DNA of 64,000 nucleotides from the NCBI GenBank assembly GCA_025336725.1, contig GCA_025336725.1_3647.1; one strand, given 5' to 3'. The stretch comes from Escherichia coli. GTDB lineage: Bacteria; Pseudomonadota; Gammaproteobacteria; Enterobacterales; Enterobacteriaceae. A model generated the notes under the pieces. The model made no database searches. It worked only from the letters and a program-made list of their open reading frames with translations, and was not told the DNA's origin. The translations under genes were made by a program, and so were the position numbers. Below, in pieces: positions 4,953 to 22,892 of this stretch (position 1 is the stretch's first letter; every line of letters begins with the position of its first letter).

Positions 4953-5768
4953 TTATGCCAGTGCAGCCTCAAAATCTTTCATCATATTTTGGAAAGTTTT
5001 TGCCTTACTTAAGGTAACACCGTGCTCTTTAGCGAAGGTTTGGAGTGCATCTTTTGAACCACTTTTGTCATCTTCGTTGTTAAGAGCTGCGGCCTGTTTA
5101 AGGATTTCATCCTTATTCTCAACAGCTGCAGATGCGAAAGAGGCTACAGTCACATCTTGTGGATCTGCTACAGGACCTTCACCGTCACCCTCAAGAGGTG
5201 GTTCCGGAACTTCAGGTTCAGGCTCTGGGGCCACTGTAGAGGTCAGCCCAAGATTTACAACCTGAGAGCGTTTCTTAGGCCATTCGATGGTGAAAGTTTG
5301 GGTATCTTCTTCATAAACAATGTTGCATTGCTCATCGTTTATGGTCACTTTCTTAGGCATACCTTCAGGGTCCCACAGATGGCCCTCTGCAACGGAAACT
5401 TGGAAAGCAGCATCTACTTCTTTAAATACTGACGGGGTGAGTGTGATATTGACATCCCCACTTTGCAGTGTTAAAGTGCTTTCATCAAGGTTTTCTGTGA
5501 AGAACAGAAGAATAACACCCATACGGATAGTTGAAATACCAGTATCAATTGGCAGGCCTGTGTGTTTTGCAATCTTCTGGAAGAAGTCTACAATCGTTCT
5601 ACATGGATAGTGAACACTGCCAATAACGAATTCTGTTGGGGGCAGCAGAGCTGATAAACCAACATTGATTTCTGGATTGTATTGTGCTAAAAATTGATAA
5701 AAACTTAATTGATTGTTGAAAACTCTTAATAGAGGATCATACTCAACTGGATATACGGCTCTCTTCAC
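4953..5768 (-). CDS. Hypothetical virion protein
   Basis: 271-aa track ORF directly downstream of the major capsid terminator. Confidence 0.3.
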   Translation of the reverse strand: MKRAVYPVEYDPLLRVFNNQLSFYQFLAQYNPEINVGLSALLPPTEFVIGSVHYPCRTIVDFFQKIAKHTGLPIDTGISTIRMGVILLFFTENLDESTLTLQSGDVNITLTPSVFKEVDAAFQVSVAEGHLWDPEGMPKKVTINDEQCNIVYEEDTQTFTIEWPKKRSQVVNLGLTSTVAPEPEPEVPEPPLEGDGEGPVADPQDVTVASFASAAVENKDEILKQAAALNNEDDKSGSKDALQTFAKEHGVTLSKAKTFQNMMKDFEAALA

Positions 5769-5789
5769 GGGACACTCCTGTTAAACCCT

Positions 5790-5824
5790 AATAAAATAAA
5801 AAAGGGGGGGAGAACCCCTCCCCA
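5790..5824 (-). terminator. Intrinsic terminator after major capsid gene
   Basis: Minus-strand GGGGAGGGG-ttct-CCCCCCC hairpin followed by TTTTTTTATTTT. Confidence 0.6.
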
Positions 5825-5847
5825 TATGGGATGAATCACCTTAGTGA

Positions 5848-6858
5848 TTAGCCACCGTTTTTCAGAGTTACTTTAACAACCAGCTCTGGACGGGTGTTAA
5901 CTGCCAGCATAGAAGTTTCAGATTCAATCTTCTCTTCACGCAGGTATGCAGAGTGTTTATACCACATATACAGTTCCTGTGCTGGGGTATTTGCTTCGTT
6001 AACATCGTCTGCCGGAGCAAAGTGCAGCTGGAACATCTGATCAATACCCATCGGCAGAATGCGAGCTTCTTTCGTAGGAATATTGCCAGAGATATCTTCG
6101 ATAAAGGTGATACCTTTATGCTCAAACACACGGTATACGCTGTCTTGACCGCCAGCACCAAGACGGCGACGCAGAGGTTCCTGAGCAGAGCCGTAATAGG
6201 TGTATGCCAGTTCTACCAGAGGGTGATGGGTAATAGCACTGAAGAACTCCGGTGAGCACAGAGCTACAATACGATAGCCAGCTGCGTTATCGCCAGCTTG
6301 CAGCGCGATGTGCAGACGAGCTTCTTCCAGAACCTCCATCGGATCCTGATCTGCTTTTGCAGGGTCGATCTCAACAGATTTCTGAGACACACCCCACAGA
6401 GTGTAGTAGTCATACTGACAAGTTGTGTCGCCAGGTGCATAGGATTTACCCAGAATAGCCTGGAACAGCGCTTTCTCACGCAGTGCTTCATGAGAAACAC
6501 GGATACGGCGAACAACGCGGGTTACTACGTCCTGAACAGTTTTCGGAGCATCAGGGGTGAAGTAACGACGGAAGTTCTGAACATCTGCGGCAGTGATGCC
6601 TTTATCCAGAGGGAAGAACGGGATGTTCAGGTTTTTAACCTGGGCACGTTCACTACCAACGTAGTTACGCTCACCACCACGACGGCGTGCCGGAATGTCG
6701 GTTACAACTTCATCAACACGCTCGATCTGAGCAATTGTTGAGGTGCCGAGACGGGTTTCGAACAGATCCATACCAGTGATCAGTCGGAATTGGCGCGGAA
6801 CAAGGTCCAGAGTAGCACCTAAATCAACAATGCCAAATTCATCTTTACGAGTAATCAT
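5848..6858 (-). CDS. Major capsid protein (putative, HK97-fold)
   Basis: 336-aa ORF downstream of scaffold and decoration-like genes and followed by a strong terminator; typical capsid size. Confidence 0.6.
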   Translation of the reverse strand: MITRKDEFGIVDLGATLDLVPRQFRLITGMDLFETRLGTSTIAQIERVDEVVTDIPARRRGGERNYVGSERAQVKNLNIPFFPLDKGITAADVQNFRRYFTPDAPKTVQDVVTRVVRRIRVSHEALREKALFQAILGKSYAPGDTTCQYDYYTLWGVSQKSVEIDPAKADQDPMEVLEEARLHIALQAGDNAAGYRIVALCSPEFFSAITHHPLVELAYTYYGSAQEPLRRRLGAGGQDSVYRVFEHKGITFIEDISGNIPTKEARILPMGIDQMFQLHFAPADDVNEANTPAQELYMWYKHSAYLREEKIESETSMLAVNTRPELVVKVTLKNGG

Positions 6859-6908
6859 TTATTTCTCCAAAGTAAAACTTAAATATTTCCCGAACAATTT
6901 AGGGCTTA

Positions 6909-7295
6909 TTATTCACCAATAGTCTGGACGTGAACTTTGTTACCTAAAGCTTCCAACTTATCCAGAATTCTTTGGTCTGCTTTAGCTCCGTCTGCACCTA
7001 ACAGCATATCTTTTGCAAAGGTAACACCGTGGACGGCAACAACCAGGTTATAGGACTGACCCACTTCTAATGGTTTTGCAAGATGAACTTTTCCTGCATC
7101 TTTGACAAGAGCACGGTCAACAAGAACGCCGTACACATCAGAACCGTCTGCGTTAGCGATAGTCCCAGTTTTTGTTACAACAGTGCCAGCGTGGTGATGC
7201 TCTGTCAGTGTTACCTTGATCTCTTTAAAATTGTAGCCAGCATCGCTAGAATCAACTTTGCCGAGCACGATATCAGAATATTGAGCGGTAATCAT
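6909..7295 (-). CDS. Head decoration-like protein (putative)
   Basis: 128-aa ORF between scaffold and capsid genes (lambda D-like position). Confidence 0.35.
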   Translation of the reverse strand: MITAQYSDIVLGKVDSSDAGYNFKEIKVTLTEHHHAGTVVTKTGTIANADGSDVYGVLVDRALVKDAGKVHLAKPLEVGQSYNLVVAVHGVTFAKDMLLGADGAKADQRILDKLEALGNKVHVQTIGE

Positions 7296-13088: not shown

Positions 13089-13165
13089 TGGTCTCCACGG
13101 AGTGATTCGAACACTCGACCTCCTGATCCCAAATCAGGCGCTCTACCAAGCTGAGCTACGCGGAG
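13089..13165 (-). tRNA. tRNA-Pro (anticodon TGG)
   Basis: Hand-folded cloverleaf: acceptor CTCCGCG/CGTGGAG, anticodon stem CCTGA/TCAGG with loop TTTGGGA, T-loop TTCGAAT, encoded CCA. Confidence 0.65.
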
Positions 13166-13174
13166 TTTATAATT

Positions 13175-13249
13175 TGGTGGCCCTGGGTGGAATTGAACCA
13201 CCGTCTGGCGATTATGAGTCGCTTGCTTGAACCTTCCAGCTACAGGGCC
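13175..13249 (-). tRNA. tRNA-Met (anticodon CAT; could be Ile-lysidine)
   Basis: Acceptor GGCCCTG/CAGGGCC, anticodon loop CTCATAA, T-loop TTCAATT, encoded CCA. Confidence 0.6.
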
Positions 13250-13250
13250 A

Positions 13251-13326
13251 TGGTGCTGATGGCAGGACTCGAACCTGCAACCTATTGATTACAAATCAAT
13301 TGCACTACCAATTGTGCTACATCAGC
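13251..13326 (-). tRNA. tRNA-Thr (anticodon TGT)
   Basis: Acceptor GCTGATG/CATCAGC, anticodon stem ATTGA/TCAAT with loop TTTGTAA, T-arm GCAGG-TTCGAGT-CCTGC, CCA. Confidence 0.6.
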
Positions 13327-13331
13327 AAAAA

Positions 13332-13430
13332 GGTGCTAGGCGATGGAATCGAACCACCTATGTATTCAACGACTACTTCGTCTATTTTCAGGATTAAAAA
13401 TCCTCGCCCTTGCCAAAGGGCCTACCTAGC
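13332..13430 (-). tRNA. Atypical tRNA-like element (~99 nt), identity unresolved
   Basis: Good acceptor (GCTAGGT/GCCTAGC), D-arm and T-arm (GGTGG-TTCGATT-CCATC); only plausible anticodon hairpin AGGA-TTTTTAA-TCCT (TTT) plus a ~30-nt variable region with its own hairpin. Confidence 0.4.
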
Positions 13431-13528
13431 ATATTATGCGAATCATGCTGCTAGTCGGCGATGACGACTGTAACATTTGTTAATCCGGTTCTGCTTCCGG
13501 AGCTCGCTTAATTTCATGATCCACGATC

Positions 13529-13618
13529 TGGCAGAGAGTAATGGAATCGAACCATCATCGAGGATATCTCAACGGGACGGTTTTCAAGACCGCTTGAGCA
13601 CCATGCTCCCTACTCTCT
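13529..13618 (-). tRNA. tRNA-Ser (anticodon TGA), long variable arm
   Basis: Acceptor AGAGAGT/ACTCTCT, anticodon stem GCGGT/ACCGT with loop CTTGAAA, ~20-nt variable arm, T-loop TTCGATT, CCA. Confidence 0.6.
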
Positions 13619-13730
13619 TTTTATAAACAACACTGATAATGACACTGATTTTCGAACAGTTAGTGACTAGTATAAACGACGATAAACATCAATGTCATTA
13701 TCTATGTTATTTATCACAAATATGTAATTT

Positions 13731-13817
13731 TGGTGGGGAGTGATGGAGTCGAACCACCCGAGTCGCAATGACAATAGATTTACAGTCTACACCGCTACCC
13801 CTACGGTATAACTCCCC
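13731..13817 (-). tRNA. tRNA-Tyr (anticodon GTA), long variable arm
   Basis: Acceptor GGGGAGT/ACTCCCC, anticodon stem GTAGA/TCTAT with loop CTGTAAA, ~15-nt variable arm, T-loop TTCGACT, CCA. Confidence 0.6.
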
Positions 13818-13821
13818 GATT

Positions 13822-13896
13822 TGGCACCCCGTACTGGACTCGAACCAGTGTCAACGGCTTAGAAGGCCGCTGCTTTATCCACTAAGCTAACAGGGC
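13822..13896 (-). tRNA. tRNA-Arg (anticodon TCT)
   Basis: Anticodon stem GCGGC/GCCGT with loop CTTCTAA, T-loop TTCGAGT, CCA; acceptor contains G-U wobbles. Confidence 0.55.
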
Positions 13897-16450: not shown

Positions 16451-17005
16451 TTACTCCCTGCTGTCAATATCAAAACCCATTGCAAGGCCGTATGCCTCTT
16501 CTAGCGGTAACAGTCTCCCCCACACATCCCAACCAACATCCAACTGCCTGCCAAATAACTGTTGTGTGGTTCCGTGAGCATGACCAAACAGTTGAACTGA
16601 TCCGTGGGGCTTTCTGTTCCACGTTGCAAACTGGTAATGGCTCATACAGATCAGATTCTTGTTGTGGCGAAGCTCGTAATAATCTACAACCTCATGACAG
16701 AACTCTTTCATAATTCTGACAGTCGTCCTTGTGTCATGGTTACCACGAACAAGAATAATATGTCCGTTCAGCATATTTAGAATTTCAGGCAGTAAGTTGT
16801 TGATATTCTTATCCTTAGTGCATGCAATGTCTCCCAAGTGGAACACGGTGTCCCATGGTGACACAATTGAGTTCCACTTGTCTATGATCCCTGCATTCAT
16901 GCTATCAAGATCGTGGTTATACTGCGATCTGTGCTTTTGACAAGAATCGAACTCCATAACACGCTGGTGGAGAAAGTGTGTGTCACTTGTTATAAAATAT
17001 TTCAT
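16451..17005 (-). CDS. Calcineurin-like metallophosphoesterase
   Basis: Motifs SDTHF (DxH), GD, LVRGNHD (GNHD), GHAHG (GHxH). Confidence 0.75.
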   Translation of the reverse strand: MKYFITSDTHFLHQRVMEFDSCQKHRSQYNHDLDSMNAGIIDKWNSIVSPWDTVFHLGDIACTKDKNINNLLPEILNMLNGHIILVRGNHDTRTTVRIMKEFCHEVVDYYELRHNKNLICMSHYQFATWNRKPHGSVQLFGHAHGTTQQLFGRQLDVGWDVWGRLLPLEEAYGLAMGFDIDSRE

Positions 17006-17012
17006 ACTATCC

Positions 17013-17423
17013 TCATTTAAGTTTAATACAGTTTTTCAGTTCACGTTCCATACGATCCACAACCCTTTCTGGAACATTGTGGATACTTTTGTTACCGTGG
17101 CGATTCTCCACCACGATTACGGTGTAATTATACCCATTACGGATCGCCATGTCAATATACTCTTGCACATGCTTTTCTTTTGTGAATGTGTTGCTTACCA
17201 CGACACGGTCGTATCCCATACGCATCATATCTTCTATATTATCTTTGCACCATTTTGCAGCAAGTGTGACTTTACTTGCATCCCAGTTGTAATTTCCATC
17301 ATCGTCGTACCAGAACATGTCGTTCTCAAAATGTGGATACAGACCTTCTAAAGATAGCGCATTTGCCAGTGTTGATTTGCCAGACCCTGGTAGACCACGC
17401 ACGATATACAGCATTTTAGACAT
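17013..17423 (-). CDS. P-loop kinase (polynucleotide-kinase-like candidate)
   Basis: Walker A GLPGSGKST right after start; start refined to Met 34 with GGAGGG RBS (track ORF runs to 17522). Confidence 0.45.
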   Translation of the reverse strand: MSKMLYIVRGLPGSGKSTLANALSLEGLYPHFENDMFWYDDDGNYNWDASKVTLAAKWCKDNIEDMMRMGYDRVVVSNTFTKEKHVQEYIDMAIRNGYNYTVIVVENRHGNKSIHNVPERVVDRMERELKNCIKLK

Positions 17424-17502
17424 AGCGACCCTCCGTTTTAATTTTAACGACAGTATACCGTGTTCTTTTGAACATTTCAAGTGTTGACATGATGCTGTTT
17501 GT

Positions 17503-18459
17503 GTGGGAAGATTGTGTAACAAAATGACAAACGAGGAACGTATGATGAAGTATTTTAATGCAGATGATTTAGTGGATAAAGGTCTTGTAACCAGTCGGTA
17601 TTATCCAAATCTCGGATTAAAGATCTACAAATATGCCAGAAAAGTATTCTACAACAATTTATGGCATTTGTCTCCGCGTCTACTGGAGTGCCGAGGCATT
17701 GTTGTCGGTAACGAGGGGAATGTTGTGGCATGGCCCTTCACAAAAGTGTTTAACTTAGGAGAAAACTCCACCAACCTACCTGACAATAAGCTTGTGACGG
17801 CTGTAGAGAAAAAGAACGGGTTCCTTGGCGTGGTATCCTCTCATAAAGGTGAACTATTGTTCTCAACGACTGGGTCTCTTGATTCTCCATATTGTAACCT
17901 TGCAAAGGAAACCATCCAGGAGCAATGTGGCAATTTAGATCTTATCAAGAAGGTTATGGGCCATGAAAACATGACATTTATGTTTGAAATTTGTCACCCT
18001 TCAGACCCGCATATTGTTCATGAGGATCATGGTGCGTATTTGATAGGTTGTAGATACAATGATTCTGGAATAATGCTACCAGAAGCGGCTTTAGACGGTA
18101 TTGCCAAGTATCTTGGTGCAAAACGTCCTCACACTGTGCGTGAAATTCCGTTCAGCTATGCAAAAGAATTAGCTGCAGAAACAAGAGGTGAAGGGTATAT
18201 GATTCGTAAGCCTTACTACCCTTATGATCTGCAGCTGAAGATCAAGTCTCCATACTATTTGGCACGGAAGGCCGTAATGAGGGGTAAAGCTTGGAAGATT
18301 TGGGATGATGATATCTTTAAACGTGTTGACGAAGAGTTTTATGGCATGGTAAACTTCATTCGTAGCAATTACACAGAAGATGTGTGGAACTGCCTCCTGG
18401 AGCAAGAACGTCGTGAGATACTTGACTGCTATTTCCACAACGAGGACTATATGCAATGA
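17503..18459 (+). CDS. ATP-dependent RNA ligase-like nucleotidyltransferase
   Basis: Motif I EKKNGF (KxNG), motif IV GEGYMIRK, motif V LKIKSP; likely start at a downstream Met (17524 or 17542). Confidence 0.55.
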   Translation: MGRLCNKMTNEERMMKYFNADDLVDKGLVTSRYYPNLGLKIYKYARKVFYNNLWHLSPRLLECRGIVVGNEGNVVAWPFTKVFNLGENSTNLPDNKLVTAVEKKNGFLGVVSSHKGELLFSTTGSLDSPYCNLAKETIQEQCGNLDLIKKVMGHENMTFMFEICHPSDPHIVHEDHGAYLIGCRYNDSGIMLPEAALDGIAKYLGAKRPHTVREIPFSYAKELAAETRGEGYMIRKPYYPYDLQLKIKSPYYLARKAVMRGKAWKIWDDDIFKRVDEEFYGMVNFIRSNYTEDVWNCLLEQERREILDCYFHNEDYMQ

Positions 18460-18504: not shown

Positions 18505-19113
18505 ATGAAACTTGTGCATGGTGTTGGTGTTAATGATGCAGACTATCCTGTCAGGGTTTTAGACAAGGATACCGGAAAGAGAATCATGTGTCCTTTTTAT
18601 ATGACATGGTCAAATATGCTAGGAAGGTGCTACCTTAAAAACAAGAAATTTGAAGCTTATGCTATGGTAGAAGTTTGTGAAGAATGGAAAATCTTCAGCA
18701 ACTTTAAGCGCTGGATGGAAAAACAAGATTGGCGGGATAAATTTTTAGATAAAGATATCCTGTTTGAAAATAATCTTATATACTGTCCAGAAGCGTGTAT
18801 TTTTGTTCCTCGTGAAATAAACAACTTCTTTGTAGCAAGGGTACCACAAAGAGGGGAGTGTTTGATGGGAGTAAGAAGAAAAGGCCCATCTTTTGCTGCC
18901 TATTGCAAAGATGGGGTTAATGACACACAGGTTTATCTTGGAACCTTTCCCACGCAGATTGAGGCACATATGAAATACTTGGAATGCAAACTGCAACTTC
19001 TTAGAGACTTGATTAGAACTGTAGATGACAGTAGGTTGCTATTAGGATTACGAAGAATTGAGAGTAAGATAGTTTTAGCTTTATCTTCAAAAACACCGAT
19101 AGAAAATTTTTAG
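18505..19113 (+). CDS. AP2-domain protein (homing-endonuclease-related DNA-binding protein?)
   Basis: C-terminal GVRRKGPSFAAYCKDG...YLGTFPTQIEAHMKY resembles an AP2/ERF-type domain; no HNH or GIY-YIG motif seen. Confidence 0.4.
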   Translation: MKLVHGVGVNDADYPVRVLDKDTGKRIMCPFYMTWSNMLGRCYLKNKKFEAYAMVEVCEEWKIFSNFKRWMEKQDWRDKFLDKDILFENNLIYCPEACIFVPREINNFFVARVPQRGECLMGVRRKGPSFAAYCKDGVNDTQVYLGTFPTQIEAHMKYLECKLQLLRDLIRTVDDSRLLLGLRRIESKIVLALSSKTPIENF

Positions 19114-19121
19114 AGGGATGT

Positions 19122-19469
19122 ATGAAAGTCTGGATAGATGATTTGCGTAACCCAGCTGATTACGGACAGGCAGATGCAGTTTGGTTTAAAACTTCACAAG
19201 AGGCTATGGAGTTTCTCAATACTCCTGCTAAAATGTATCGAAGAGTGACAGAGTGGTTTTTTGACCACGATTTGGGTGAAGACTCTGATCAAGACGGGTA
19301 TGCTGTTTTATTGCGCCTGGAAGAGCTATTTGTATTTGGCAAGCCACCTGTTGTTGACAACGTGAAGATTTTCGTGCATACTTCTAACCCATCAGCAGCT
19401 CGTAAATTTATGCTTGCTGCAGATTCGTTCAGAAAGTTTGGAATAGAGATCAAACAGAACATTTACTGA
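19122..19469 (+). CDS. Hypothetical protein
   Basis: 115-aa track ORF immediately upstream of Sir2 with a 9-nt gap. Confidence 0.35.
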   Translation: MKVWIDDLRNPADYGQADAVWFKTSQEAMEFLNTPAKMYRRVTEWFFDHDLGEDSDQDGYAVLLRLEELFVFGKPPVVDNVKIFVHTSNPSAARKFMLAADSFRKFGIEIKQNIY

Positions 19470-19477
19470 GGACACCT

Positions 19478-20239
19478 ATGCGACGACTGATTATTATCTC
19501 TGGTGCTGGCTTGAGTGCTGAATCCGGTATCCCCACCTTTCGATCTGGTAGCACTGCAATGTGGGAGAATTTCAGCATCGATGAGGTGTGTAACATCCAC
19601 ACCTTTGCCAAGAACTACTATAAGGTGCATGACTTTTACAATGCACGGCGTGTAGCTCTGGGTAGTGTTGAGCCCAATCTTGCACATCTCCGGATCGCCG
19701 AGTGGTATTCTCGCTGGTCTGGTCGTGTAATCAACCTGACCACCAATGTAGATGATTTGCTGGAGCGTGCTGGTGTAAAACATGAAGATATTTTACATGT
19801 CCACGGGTATTTGCCAGAAATAGTCTATGAGGACGATGAAGGAAGTAATGTCATTAAAGACGTTGGGTATTCGGAGGTAGATGCAGGAGAGTATATTTGG
19901 GTTAAGCCTAATGTGGTATTCTTCGGAGAAGTTGCTCCAAAGTACACAGACATGTATGACCTATTGACTTCTCTGACAAGCAATGATATGGTTATCCTTG
20001 TAGGGTGCTCAAACACAGTTATCAATTTTAACTGGGAGCTGTTCCCTGCCTGTAACAAGGGCACTAAGCTGTTGATTGTTAACAAATACGACTCACAGCA
20101 TTTGGAGGAGAATGGCATTTCACGTAGTGACATTTACCAGTATGAGGATCGCGGCATTCCTGTTTGGTTTAACGGGGCGGTTGACGCTTTCTCTGATAAA
20201 ACATTTATTGAAACTGTAGAAAACTTCATGGAACTTTAA
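19478..20239 (+). CDS. Sir2-family NAD-dependent protein (no zinc ribbon)
   Basis: Sirtuin signature GAGLSAESGIPTFR, TTNVD, catalytic HG; no CxxC pairs between HG and VVFFGE. Confidence 0.75.
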   Translation: MRRLIIISGAGLSAESGIPTFRSGSTAMWENFSIDEVCNIHTFAKNYYKVHDFYNARRVALGSVEPNLAHLRIAEWYSRWSGRVINLTTNVDDLLERAGVKHEDILHVHGYLPEIVYEDDEGSNVIKDVGYSEVDAGEYIWVKPNVVFFGEVAPKYTDMYDLLTSLTSNDMVILVGCSNTVINFNWELFPACNKGTKLLIVNKYDSQHLEENGISRSDIYQYEDRGIPVWFNGAVDAFSDKTFIETVENFMEL

Positions 20240-20252
20240 AAGGAGACCTTTA

Positions 20253-20966
20253 ATGCTGAATACTAAGTTAATTGACAATCTGGAAAAACTGTCCCAACCT
20301 GAAAACTACCTTTGGTCTGCCAACTGGGTGGAAAACTGGAACCGTGTGGCAGCTAAAGTGAAAAAATCATACACACCATTCGAATTACAGCTTAGCTTCA
20401 TTGAGGAAGAGTTTAATGAAGTTCTGGAAGAGCTGGAGAAAGGTGATGGTGGAGATCATCTGCTAAAAGAGGCCTGCGATCTTCATGTTGTTACAAGCTA
20501 TGCCGCTTATCTTGTTAATGATAATCATGAAAAGTGGTCAAACCTGTTTGATAATCCGCGAGGTCTTAAGTTTAAGATCGGTGAGTTCTATGACACACTG
20601 ATCGCTGCGAAAAACACCTCCAAGCAAAAAGCTTCTGCTTACCGCCTGGCGGAGTTGTCAACAGCTTTGCTATTCCAGCTTCGCGGTGATGTGTGCGGGA
20701 TGATGCGGAAGGTTCTCAAATCTAATGACAGCAAGTTTGCACGGGTCAACCATCTACGGTATTCACACGGTGCCAGTGCAGATATGCCTGCTGAACAACT
20801 CGTAGAGTTAGAGATTAAAGATCTTGAGCGACGCTTCGATGGTCGATATGAAGGTTTTGTTGCTAAAGAAGAATTCTACAACGGTAATAAGGTTATCATC
20901 TTCCTTGACAGCAAAGGTAAGATCATGAAGCCTTCAAGCTTCAAGGATGTAACAGAGTATATTTAA
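20253..20966 (+). CDS. MazG-like nucleotide pyrophosphohydrolase domain protein (putative)
   Basis: EEEFNEVLEELEKGD...KEACDL resembles the MazG acidic motif; C-terminal half unknown. Confidence 0.4.
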   Translation: MLNTKLIDNLEKLSQPENYLWSANWVENWNRVAAKVKKSYTPFELQLSFIEEEFNEVLEELEKGDGGDHLLKEACDLHVVTSYAAYLVNDNHEKWSNLFDNPRGLKFKIGEFYDTLIAAKNTSKQKASAYRLAELSTALLFQLRGDVCGMMRKVLKSNDSKFARVNHLRYSHGASADMPAEQLVELEIKDLERRFDGRYEGFVAKEEFYNGNKVIIFLDSKGKIMKPSSFKDVTEYI

Positions 20967-21029
20967 CAACATAGCCGGGGTTACCCGGCTTTACCTGTTG
21001 TGGAAAGTAGTAAAGTGAGGTAGTTAGTT

Positions 21030-21338
21030 ATGTACAAGCACTCCAGGTATCTTGAAAACGATGCTGTGTTTGGGGATCAGATGAAAGAATTGGTTAAACT
21101 TATAGGCAGGATAGAGGATAAGTTTGACACTAAGATCTACATCGACAGCAAGGTCTTCAACCACAAAATATGGACAAATGTGTGTGTTGGACTACATGGG
21201 GATAGAGATGTAGTAAATTTAGTTGTAATTAAGTTCATAGTGTGGCAGAATAAGACTATAAGTTATTACGATCCACATCTGCTTGTTTACCCGATAAAAG
21301 ATCTATTAGAGAAGGAGGACTGCAATGCCATTATTTAA
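21030..21338 (+). CDS. Hypothetical protein
   Basis: 102-aa track ORF. Confidence 0.3.
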   Translation: MYKHSRYLENDAVFGDQMKELVKLIGRIEDKFDTKIYIDSKVFNHKIWTNVCVGLHGDRDVVNLVVIKFIVWQNKTISYYDPHLLVYPIKDLLEKEDCNAII

Positions 21339-21591
21339 TCTTGCTAAACCTGTAGAAGCACACCAGTTTGATGGAAGCTCTTCCTCAGCATCTGATCTGC
21401 AACGGTGGATTGATACAGGTGAGTTTACATCGTCACCTGTTCGGACCAGAGATATTCGTCGCATGTGTGAGCTTGTCGAGCGTTTGGTAACCTGGTCTTT
21501 TACAGGGGATTGGTTAGTTGACTTTATGGGAGACTGGCTGGTAATGAGTAAAGAAGAAATGTTTAAAATTTTTAAGGAGGAGACTGAGTAA
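21325..21591 (+). CDS. Hypothetical protein
   Basis: 88-aa track ORF. Confidence 0.3.
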   Translation: MPLFNLAKPVEAHQFDGSSSSASDLQRWIDTGEFTSSPVRTRDIRRMCELVERLVTWSFTGDWLVDFMGDWLVMSKEEMFKIFKEETE

Positions 21592-22892
21592 TGCATCAAA
21601 TCAAAACACCCCTGTACGCACTAAACAAAGATGGCAGTTACCAGCAGTGGAAAGTATTCACAGATGGTGAAAAGGTTATCGTAGAGTTTGGCAAGCTTGG
21701 CGGTAAATTGCAGTATAAAGAAACAGTATGCACGCCTAAGAACGTAGGTCGATCCAACGAGACTACAGCTGAGCAACAGGCCGAGCTGGAAGCGATCAGT
21801 AAGTGGGAAAAACAAGTTCGCCTGGGGTATGTTGAGAATATGGAAAATTGCGAGCAGGGTGTTGACCTTTTACCCATGCTGGTGCATGACTACCTGAAGC
21901 GTGGCAAGGCACTTAAATTACCTTGCTGGATCTTGCGTAAGTTAGATGGCCTTCGTCTGCTTGTTGTTTTCCAAAATGGTGAGCCTAAATTTATTTCCCG
22001 TGGTAATAAGTCCTACCCTATTCAAGGAAAGCTTTTAGAGCAACTTCGTTCTTTCCATTCTACCACTGGGATTAAACAACTTGATGGGGAACTATACATT
22101 CATGGTCTTCCTTTGCAGAAAATAGTGTCTCTTGCTAAACGGTGGCGCACACAGGAAGAGATTCAGGCCGAGATCGATAAAGACTACGAGGCAGATAAAA
22201 AACGCCGTCATGCCGCAATTAAGGCAGGCTTATCAACATACAAAAACTTCAATAAGGTAGATATTCCTGTTGATGTTGAGCCTGTTCGTGATGATTTGCG
22301 TTACGGAGGGTATTGTAGCTATGACTTAGAGTATCATATTTTCGACATCCCTAGCGACAAGGTATGGTGGGATCCGGAAACAGAATCTGGACGCTGTAAG
22401 GATCTTATGGATGCAGAAAATACCATTACCACTCTGATGCTTGACCATATCAAGGTTGTTGACGCAGAACTTGCGTACACAGTTGATCATTGCGAAGAAT
22501 CTGTTGGTGTATTCATGTCCGAAGGGTATGAAGGCACTATCATGCGTAACTTCTGTGGTAAATATGAATACGGTCAGCGAACATCTGAAGCGTTGAAATG
22601 GAAAAAATTCAACGACACGGAAGCCAAAGTGGTGGATGTAGAAAAGGATAAGAACGATGAGGGTGTTCTTGTCTGTGTTGACAAGGAAGGTGTTGTTGTT
22701 AAAATGAAGATGAAAGGGACGCACGAGGAGCGTAGTTATGACCGGATGCTGGAGTTGATTGGTAAGTTTGTGACTTTTAAATATCAGGCGCGAACAGAGG
22801 ATAACAACTTCCAGTTCCCGGTGGCTATATGCGTCCGAAATGTTAACCAGACACTTGGGAGGTGCTGGAATAATATAGGGTTTAGTAGGTAA
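21591..22892 (+). CDS. ATP-dependent DNA ligase
   Basis: Motif I KLDGLR, motif IV EGTIMR, motif V LKWKKF. Confidence 0.75.
   Translation: MHQIKTPLYALNKDGSYQQWKVFTDGEKVIVEFGKLGGKLQYKETVCTPKNVGRSNETTAEQQAELEAISKWEKQVRLGYVENMENCEQGVDLLPMLVHDYLKRGKALKLPCWILRKLDGLRLLVVFQNGEPKFISRGNKSYPIQGKLLEQLRSFHSTTGIKQLDGELYIHGLPLQKIVSLAKRWRTQEEIQAEIDKDYEADKKRRHAAIKAGLSTYKNFNKVDIPVDVEPVRDDLRYGGYCSYDLEYHIFDIPSDKVWWDPETESGRCKDLMDAENTITTLMLDHIKVVDAELAYTVDHCEESVGVFMSEGYEGTIMRNFCGKYEYGQRTSEALKWKKFNDTEAKVVDVEKDKNDEGVLVCVDKEGVVVKMKMKGTHEERSYDRMLELIGKFVTFKYQARTEDNNFQFPVAICVRNVNQTLGRCWNNIGFSR

Follow-up and report, generated by a model that had tools for sequence, protein, structure and literature searches.

A zinc-less class III sirtuin in a conserved RNA end-repair cluster of rV5-like Escherichia coli phages

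The window analysed here, a stretch of 64,000 nucleotides from an E. coli assembly (GenBank GCA_025336725.1, contig GCA_025336725.1_3647.1), carries between positions 19122 and 20966 three tightly linked open reading frames (ORFs), the middle one of which encodes a sirtuin. Around 120 Vequintavirinae genomes match this region at 93–99% nucleotide identity, which makes the window a piece of a Vequintavirus genome, i.e. that of an rV5-like E. coli myovirus. Those records routinely label the middle gene as a Sir2-like NAD-dependent deacetylase, and its product in the window is 92–99% identical to the Vequintavirus Sir2 proteins in the phage database. The three ORFs, including the phage-borne Sir2, had been picked out in an initial annotation made from the letters of the DNA and a list of its reading frames; all three are confirmed on the plus strand, with intergenic gaps of 8 nt (first to second) and 13 nt (second to third):

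19122–19469, plus strand: cREC (cyclic-phosphate-processing receiver domain), 115 aa (Pfam PF20274, cREC_REC; phrog_1479, 1.7e-33)
19478–20239, plus strand: zinc-less class III (CobB/SIRT5-like) sirtuin, 253 aa, single-domain (Pfam SIR2; phrog_2162, 2.1e-109)
20253–20966, plus strand: all-alpha NTP pyrophosphohydrolase of the MazG/HisE/dimeric-dUTPase superfamily, 237 aa (MazG-like protein)

Eighteen records labelled 'Campylobacter phage', with C. jejuni given as the host, are ~93% identical to the E. coli Vequintaviruses across 19122–20966; they look like mislabelled or contaminating rV5-like phages.

The sirtuin matches Pfam SIR2 (PF02146) at 3.8e-27 (95.8 bits against a cut-off of 24), and its motifs can be read directly: GAGLSAESGIPTFR, containing the Rossmann NAD-binding GAGxS and FR, followed by HVHG and VVFFGE. 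Both the NAD-binding signature and the catalytic HG proposed in the initial annotation are thereby confirmed, as is the lack of a CxxC...CxxC zinc ribbon between HG and VVFFGE: the 28 residues separating HG from KPNVVFFGE contain no cysteine (none between H109 and F148), and in an alignment with SIRT5 this region measures ~28 residues in the phage protein and ~53 in SIRT5. Among 59 diverse relatives (down to ~50% identity), no Cys column is conserved in the zinc-module segment, which holds 0–2 cysteines across 75 Sir2 ORFs from related loci and likewise 0–2 in 112 database homologs, the latter collected with a looser search pattern. The loss of zinc is therefore not a local defect and holds in all of the relatives examined. 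The AlphaFold2 model (mean pLDDT 89.9) shows the Cys4 module replaced by a short β-hairpin, spanning residues 110–128. Since the zinc ribbon is a structural feature, the ribbon-less protein is still a sirtuin, albeit a variant one.

The residues that make a sirtuin work are all retained. In the 59-relative alignment, S16, G17, F21, R22, Y54, R57, N90, D92, H109, G110, F148, F149, E151, G176, S178 and N202 are invariant; these include the catalytic His and Asn (H109 and N90), on whose presence in an accurate alignment the initial annotation had staked the assignment, and H109, N90 and D92 align with the HG and QNID motifs of SIRT5. Moreover, the sequence FYNARR of the phage protein aligns with FYHYRR of SIRT5, in which, counting back from the catalytic His158, the aligned pair is Tyr102 and Arg105. 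This is the pair through which SIRT5 reads the carboxylate of succinyl- or malonyl-lysine, and the phage clade keeps the equivalent class III Tyr-x-x-Arg pair (Y54 and R57) invariant. Among solved structures, SIRT5, E. coli CobB and Sir2Af1 come closest in sequence; Foldseek likewise places E. coli CobB first (E 2e-18), followed by Sir2Af1 and SIRT5, with TM-scores to CobB of 0.74–0.76 (query-normalised) and 0.79–0.85 (target-normalised) at 26–28% identity. The phage protein shares with CobB and SIRT5 its Rossmann core, GAGxS/FR, N90/D92, catalytic His and FGE loop, and its FYNARR corresponds to Y102/R105 of SIRT5, whereas it differs from both in having no Cys4 ribbon, in the replacement of the Gln of the TQN motif by Thr in every clade member, in a conserved C-terminal extension of ~50 residues and in belonging to a clade restricted to phages. 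These comparisons show a CobB-derived, deacylase-related class III sirtuin in which every NAD-binding and catalytic residue has been kept; judged by this intact catalytic set, the ribbon-less phage enzyme should consume NAD+.

Sir2 domains also occur as NADase effectors in bacterial defence systems, to which the initial annotation had likened the phage protein. The resemblance to ThsA, DSR1/2, Sir2-HerA and the Sir2 proteins associated with short pAgo extends to membership of the Sir2 superfamily, the use of NAD+ and the missing zinc ribbon. In contrast to these systems, the phage gene is encoded by a lytic phage, has CobB as its nearest structure and gave no credible match in a PADLOC defence-model scan, the sole partial hit (13.6 bits, E 0.0075) being to an unrelated candidate model; in addition, no sensor or partner (SLOG, HerA, pAgo or TIR) is fused to the sirtuin or encoded in its neighbours. 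The class III Tyr/Arg pair, invariant in the family, likewise speaks against the analogy. With the scan negative and the fold search nearest to deacylases, the identity of a defence-type Sir2 NADase was rejected.

The three ORFs are the downstream part of a conserved RNA end-healing and sealing cluster of rV5-like phages. The cluster is split between strands: a metallophosphoesterase and a kinase lie on the minus strand, divergent from an Rnl1-type ligase, cREC and Sir2 on the plus strand. Its upstream genes, and a group of tRNA genes ~2.5 kb away from it, are as follows:

13089–13896, minus strand: tRNA cluster of six genes, namely Pro-TGG, Met-CAT, Thr-TGT, Ser-TGA, Tyr-GTA and Arg-TCT (ARAGORN)
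16451–17005, minus strand: calcineurin-like metallophosphoesterase, 184 aa (Pfam Metallophos_2, 5.7e-6; Metallophos, 9.1e-5; phrog_547 phosphoesterase, 3e-50)
17013–17423, minus strand: P-loop kinase, ~136 aa (Pfam AAA_33, 3.3e-10; Zeta_toxin, 2.7e-5; phrog_2071, 6.5e-58; phrog_505 polynucleotide kinase, 1.1e-9)
17524–18459, plus strand: T4 Rnl1-type ATP-dependent RNA ligase, 311 aa from the annotated start (Pfam RNA_lig_T4_1, 1.5e-14; phrog_562, 7.2e-66)

The metallophosphoesterase is kept in the module across Vequintavirus, Mydovirus-like phages and Phapecoctavirus, and it is a candidate healer of RNA ends bearing a 2',3'-cyclic phosphate or a 3'-phosphate. The P-loop kinase, related to polynucleotide kinases, is a candidate RNA 5'-OH kinase; mechanically its ORF extends to 17522, and the annotated homologue in the close relative 241Ecol014PP begins MSKMLY and measures 411 nt. 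The RNA ligase is 98% identical to that of 241Ecol014PP. In Vequintavirus, Mydovirus-like phages and Phapecoctavirus alike, the gene for an Rnl1-type ligase adjoins that for cREC, a predicted metal-independent cyclic phosphodiesterase. The tRNA cluster is also found in 241Ecol014PP, where only four of its genes (Met, Thr, Ser and Arg) are annotated; judged by this context, the phage tRNAs are plausible substrates of the repair system. Close parallels are T4 Pnkp with Rnl1 and the Pnkp of Clostridium thermocellum (CthPnkp): shared with them is the joint encoding of a 5' kinase, a phosphoesterase and a ligase of the Rnl1 type, beside phage tRNA genes. Here, by contrast, the kinase and phosphatase are separate proteins, and the phosphatase is of the calcineurin type, as in CthPnkp, rather than of the HAD type found in T4; cREC and the sirtuin are additions that neither of these repair systems possesses.

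Exactly this neighbourhood has been described in phage V5 by Iyer, Burroughs, Anantharaman and Aravind (2022; Viruses 14:1977, section 3.7.3; PMC9503650), and the sets of V5 and Proteus phage Mydo presented there are identical in content to that of the window: a sirtuin, a T4-like RNA ligase, cREC, a nucleotide kinase, a pyrophosphatase of the MazG superfamily and a calcineurin-like phosphoesterase. Those authors predicted that the sirtuin acts like KptA/Tpt1, removing RNA 2'-phosphates derived from 2',3'-cyclic phosphate ends, and that the accompanying phosphoesterases serve one of two purposes, the opening of the cyclic phosphate or the processing of the ADP-ribose cyclic phosphate that results (PMC9503650). 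The cREC domain itself had been defined in earlier work: it resembles receiver domains and is predicted to open cyclic phosphates, whether these sit on RNA ends or on derivatives of ADP-ribose (Iyer et al. 2021; PMC7824862), and it is described as experimentally uncharacterised (PMC9503650, PMC7824862). Thus, the cluster is already annotated in genomes, and its neighbourhood and likely role are already published (PMC9503650). What our analysis adds is smaller in scale: the loss of zinc in all relatives examined, the invariance of the Tyr/Arg pair and a reading of that pair as a phosphate binder, which is our own, together with a chimeric cREC apparently created by a homing endonuclease and a third gene that is dUTPase-like in fold and only loosely linked to the other two (see below). 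The initial annotation had proposed the manipulation of NAD or of nucleotide signals during infection; the RNA-repair context of the genes favours RNA end repair instead, as published.

The pathway that we envisage, following Iyer et al. (2022), would begin with a host ribotoxin cutting tRNA or mRNA to leave a 2',3'-cyclic phosphate end. cREC, the metallophosphoesterase or both would open or remove the cyclic phosphate, the kinase would phosphorylate the 5'-OH and Rnl1 would seal the break. The sirtuin would then use NAD+ to remove the residual 2'-phosphate in the manner of Tpt1/KptA, yielding nicotinamide and ADP-ribose 1''-2'' cyclic phosphate, and the latter could be degraded by cREC together with a macro-domain protein encoded elsewhere in the genome of a close relative. 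In this scheme, the Tyr54/Arg57 pair would be well placed to hold the phosphate, much as its SIRT5 counterpart holds the carboxylate of succinyl-lysine. Sirtuins and Tpt1 work by analogous chemistry: in each, C1'' of NAD+ is attacked by a substrate oxygen, after which the ribose 2''-OH turns on the substrate centre by way of a 1'',2''-cyclic species; given this shared chemistry, removal of a 2'-phosphate by a sirtuin is chemically plausible. As a proposed functional analogue, Tpt1/KptA would offer close parallels, being NAD+-dependent, releasing nicotinamide, forming a 1'',2''-cyclic ADP-ribose product and working with an RNA ligase, a cyclic phosphodiesterase and a kinase, all of which have candidate counterparts in the phage cluster. 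The folds, in contrast, are unrelated: Tpt1/KptA adopts the ADP-ribosyltransferase fold, whereas the phage protein is a Rossmann sirtuin with SIR2 as its only Pfam match.

On this basis, we infer that the sirtuin takes part in RNA end repair through NAD-dependent removal of the 2'-phosphate, after the cyclic phosphate has been opened and the break sealed by Rnl1, a view to which we give slightly less than an even chance. The more specific proposal, that a CobB-derived zinc-less sirtuin was recruited as an RNA 2'-phosphotransferase, re-using its Tyr/Arg pair for the 2'-phosphate and thereby serving as a non-homologous replacement of Tpt1/KptA, is offered more tentatively.

The distribution of the clade lends this scheme support from outside Vequintavirus. 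A tblastn search found the sirtuin in 989 phage records, among them T5-like phages, Vequintavirinae, Mydovirus-like phages, rV5, phi92, 7-11, KVP40 and jumbo phages. The genes around it were surveyed at 78 Sir2 loci, with ~6 kb of flank for each. The block of Rnl, kinase, metallophosphoesterase, MazG and DNA ligase is near Sir2 in 14 of these; at 29 others, all T5-like, a HAD_SAK ('Swiss Army Knife RNA repair') phosphatase lies 0.8–1.3 kb downstream of it (in T5 itself, the PF18143 match has an E-value of 4e-20), and a metallophosphoesterase is near Sir2 in four more. An earlier, single-iteration phmmer survey had returned the T5-like Sir2 genes as having no repair neighbours; this result was revised when Pfam and jackhmmer searches found the HAD_SAK phosphatase. 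In Sugarland, phi92 and KVP40, the immediate neighbours of Sir2 have only DUF matches or no Pfam match. On a jumbo phage contig (L063, 278–279 kb; positions 5721–7198), the gene of a distant relative of the sirtuin shows translational coupling on both sides, with that of a DUF4326 protein upstream and that of a nucleoside 2-deoxyribosyltransferase-like protein downstream, and the RNA-repair genes RlaP and Thg1-like are nearby on the other strand; this combination of NAD and RNA-repair functions differs in arrangement from that of the window. In another phage, a gene for NAMPT, which recycles nicotinamide, is located just upstream of Sir2. Overall, the clade recurs in linkage with RNA-end phosphoesterases in at least four architectures, and this recurrence provides real support for the published RNA-repair model.

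Several observations weigh against RNA 2'-phosphate removal. The metallophosphoesterase, kinase and Rnl1 already make up a complete T4-like pathway, one that leaves no 2'-phosphate. By sequence and fold, the sirtuin looks like an ordinary lysine deacylase, and neither revealed a new basic surface or a feature for binding RNA; the family is acidic (median pI 5.3, range 4.7–6.2), which we regard as atypical for an RNA-binding enzyme. Sir2, with 989 records, also far outnumbers cREC (349) and the MazG-like protein (324), the last two having near-identical host and lineage profiles, and 32 of the 78 Sir2 loci have none of the queried repair genes inside 6 kb. In Phapecoctavirus iGC_PHA_EC001, a distance of over 25 kb separates Sir2 from the MazG-like gene, and in phage SKA64, where the MazG-like gene accompanies a DNA ligase and an exonuclease, the repair module has no Sir2. 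Finally, literature searches found comparative genomics but no biochemical or genetic study of any phage sirtuin.

Some of these points are what would be expected of a phage protein lysine deacylase, that is, a CobB-like deacetylase, desuccinylase or demalonylase, possibly a lipoamidase, that remodels host or phage acylation during infection. Its position among RNA-repair genes would then be a genomic coincidence or at most regulatory, for example through deacylation of the repair enzymes. CobB, SIRT5 and Sir2Af1 are the best matches in both sequence and structure, the catalytic residues and the Tyr/Arg pair that reads acidic acyl groups are all invariant, the low pI is in keeping with such a role, and so are the ~640 phage records by which Sir2 exceeds cREC and the many Sir2 loci with no repair gene nearby. 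Set against this, the missing zinc module and a TQN motif in which Thr invariably replaces Gln set the clade apart as a derived one with a remodelled substrate cleft; the RNA-end phosphoesterases beside which it is repeatedly and independently found belong to three unrelated folds (cREC/metallophosphoesterase, HAD_SAK and RlaP-containing sets), and no genomic context suggests a target protein. We consider a deacylase the main rival to RNA repair, if a rather unlikely one.

An NADase or manipulator of NAD signals, partnered by the MazG-like pyrophosphatase in depleting NAD+ or in destroying immune signals that are nucleotides or derived from ADP-ribose, for example to counter Thoeris, CBASS or Sir2-type defences, appears improbable. 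Sirtuins do consume NAD+, and the literature discusses both cREC and all-alpha NTP pyrophosphatases as enzymes that might degrade messengers of the nucleotide or ADP-ribose-derived kind (PMC9503650, PMC7824862). The NAMPT gene beside one distant relative of the sirtuin would fit as well. Counting against the idea are the lack of similarity to defence-type Sir2 models and of a sensor or partner domain, a fold nearest to that of deacylases, the non-conserved adjacency of the MazG-like gene and the fold of its product, which indicates dNTP hydrolysis of the dUTPase type. Moreover, the full annotation of a close relative contains no NAD-salvage genes, and the wholesale burning of NAD+ would harm the phage's own replication. 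The only related gene in that annotation encodes a stand-alone macro-domain protein (OR062943.1, 125324–125692), ~87 kb away in the record; macro domains hydrolyse O-acyl-ADP-ribose and ADP-ribose-1''-phosphate, and this protein could process the product of the sirtuin under the RNA-repair and deacylase models alike.

Least probable of all is that the sirtuin acts on RNA in some other way, either by deacylating RNA or aminoacyl-tRNA (for example ac4C, or N-acetyl-aminoacyl-tRNA of the kind that GNAT toxins make) or by ADP-ribosylating an RNA end or a translation protein: the RNA-repair and tRNA-gene context would fit equally well and the enzyme keeps the full catalytic set needed for transferring an acyl group to ADP-ribose, but the idea is purely speculative, no associated acetyltransferase or reader is seen, the Tyr/Arg pair suggests an anionic substrate group as opposed to a neutral acetyl, and we know of no such RNA-directed activity established for a class III sirtuin.

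The distinction matters well beyond the window. The same clade is present in about 990 sequenced phages, including T5, rV5, phi92 and KVP40, and we found no report of an assay for any of its members. If RNA 2'-phosphates are indeed what the sirtuin removes, it would be the first to act on a nucleic-acid phosphate, adding a new substrate class for sirtuins and explaining how tRNA could be repaired without Tpt1 in many phages; phages as common as T5 and rV5 could then mend tRNAs cut by host anticodon nucleases via a plant- or yeast-type pathway with a 2'-phosphate at the junction. Should it prove to be a protein deacylase, it would instead point to phage control of host acylation.

The first of the three ORFs had been described in the initial annotation as a 115-aa protein of unknown nature, 9 nt upstream of Sir2. 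Its size and position are correct; the gap is 8 nt, and the protein is cREC, matching PF20274 over residues 1–97 at 1.2e-16 (61.6 bits against a cut-off of 27). In a pairwise comparison with the 241Ecol014PP homologue, the motifs WIDDLR (D6–D7), FDHDLG and HTSNP are shared. Nor do the three ORFs directly follow the RNA-ligase cluster, as had been thought, since one further gene intervenes:

18505–19113, plus strand: HNH homing endonuclease, 202 aa (phrog_953 HNH endonuclease, 1.7e-69)

In 241Ecol014PP and typical Vequintaviruses, the ligase gene overlaps that of cREC directly, whereas in the window the HNH gene separates them; an insert at this site is absent in all of the ~120 matching Vequintavirinae records, and the HNH gene is outside the ancestral RNA-repair module. 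The window segment 18461–19390, which takes in the HNH gene together with the first ~90 codons of cREC, shares 86% identity with Phapecoctavirus SKA64, a phage of a different subfamily in which the same HNH gene is situated 8 nt upstream of cREC. Correspondingly, the Megablast match to Vequintaviruses begins only at 19328, the ~70 codons at the 5' end of cREC being of the Phapecoctavirus-like type. The window cREC is 71% identical to its Vequintavirus homologue, with all of the divergence in the N-terminal part and the last 53 residues near-identical. Taken together, the divergent N-terminal part, the near-identical C-terminal residues and the SKA64-like HNH/cREC block indicate that the window cREC is a chimera, which looks like the product of homing with co-conversion of the flank. 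It is in this inserted HNH gene and the chimeric cREC that the window departs from the V5 and Mydo neighbourhoods.

In the third ORF, the MazG-like acidic motif noted initially is present as E53xxE56...E73xxD76, located in the metal-binding helices. E53 and D76 are invariant among 62 aligned relatives, and E52 and E56 are at least 90% conserved. The window protein itself has no Pfam hit; of its relatives, 43 of 62 match PRA-PH and 12 of 62 match MazG at E ≤ 0.01 (weak matches), and none matches dUTPase_2. A word-indexed homolog search gave only 16 relatives, and an exhaustive profile search was used instead, which found only 163 representative ones; searching the PDB sequences with the family profile returned nothing, even at E ≤ 10. 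By fold, the protein belongs to the superfamily, with dimeric dUTPases as its closest members. From the dimeric dUTPases of S. aureus phage (Dut), C. jejuni and Leishmania it differs in that its relatives have no dUTPase_2 match and in an extra C-terminal β-hairpin, which carries an invariant GKxxKP motif in this family. No dUTPase is annotated anywhere in 241Ecol014PP.

The initial annotation had paired this pyrophosphatase with Sir2, a partnership that gene order does little to sustain. The two genes are adjacent only in Vequintavirus; in Mydovirus-like phages, they are ~3 kb apart, with the MazG-like gene beyond the DNA ligase, and the distance exceeds 25 kb in Phapecoctavirus iGC_PHA_EC001. 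Outside Vequintavirus, the MazG-like gene comes after the DNA ligase and before an exonuclease. Given the non-conserved adjacency to Sir2 and the dUTPase-like fold, a role in the nucleotide pool is likelier than a dedicated partnership with the sirtuin; the protein is more probably a nucleotide-pool enzyme, of the dUTPase or dNTP pyrophosphatase type, and a companion of the DNA ligase. In the window, the latter follows after two small ORFs:

21030–21338: conserved small ORF, 102 aa (phrog_7684)
21325–21591: conserved small ORF, 88 aa (phrog_14585)
21591–22892, plus strand: ATP-dependent DNA ligase (Pfam DNA_ligase_A_M, 3.1e-9; DNA_ligase_OB_2, 5.3e-7; synteny)

The DNA ligase is a member of the larger conserved block and is accompanied by the MazG-like gene in other phage lineages. 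Both small ORFs accompany the RNA-repair/DNA-ligase block in Vequintavirus and in Mydovirus-like phages, at different positions: in the latter, the 102-aa ORF is upstream of the phosphoesterase and the 88-aa ORF lies between the DNA ligase and MazG.

Scans of the region for promoters and terminators found no enrichment over shuffled sequence (for terminator-like sites, 7 found against 5.2 ± 2.4 expected), and such sites were therefore not used to define an operon. One element is visible directly in the sequence, 7 nt past the stop codon of the MazG-like gene and with a weak T-rich stretch behind it; it may mark where a transcript ends or serve to stabilise RNA:

20973–20990, no strand assigned: GC-rich perfect hairpin AGCCGGGGTTACCCGGCT (terminator-like match on the minus strand)

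Within the cluster, promoter-like sites occur on both strands of the 100-bp intergenic region 17424–17523. Calculated in steps of 2 kb, the GC skew changes sign at ~18 kb and again at ~56 kb, the first reversal coinciding with this divergent promoter region between the kinase (minus strand) and the RNA ligase (plus strand). Additionally, an HNH homing endonuclease is also found in another gene of a relative: in OR062943.1 (17239–20168), nrdD, encoding the anaerobic ribonucleotide reductase, is annotated in three pieces, with an HNH homing endonuclease interrupting it.

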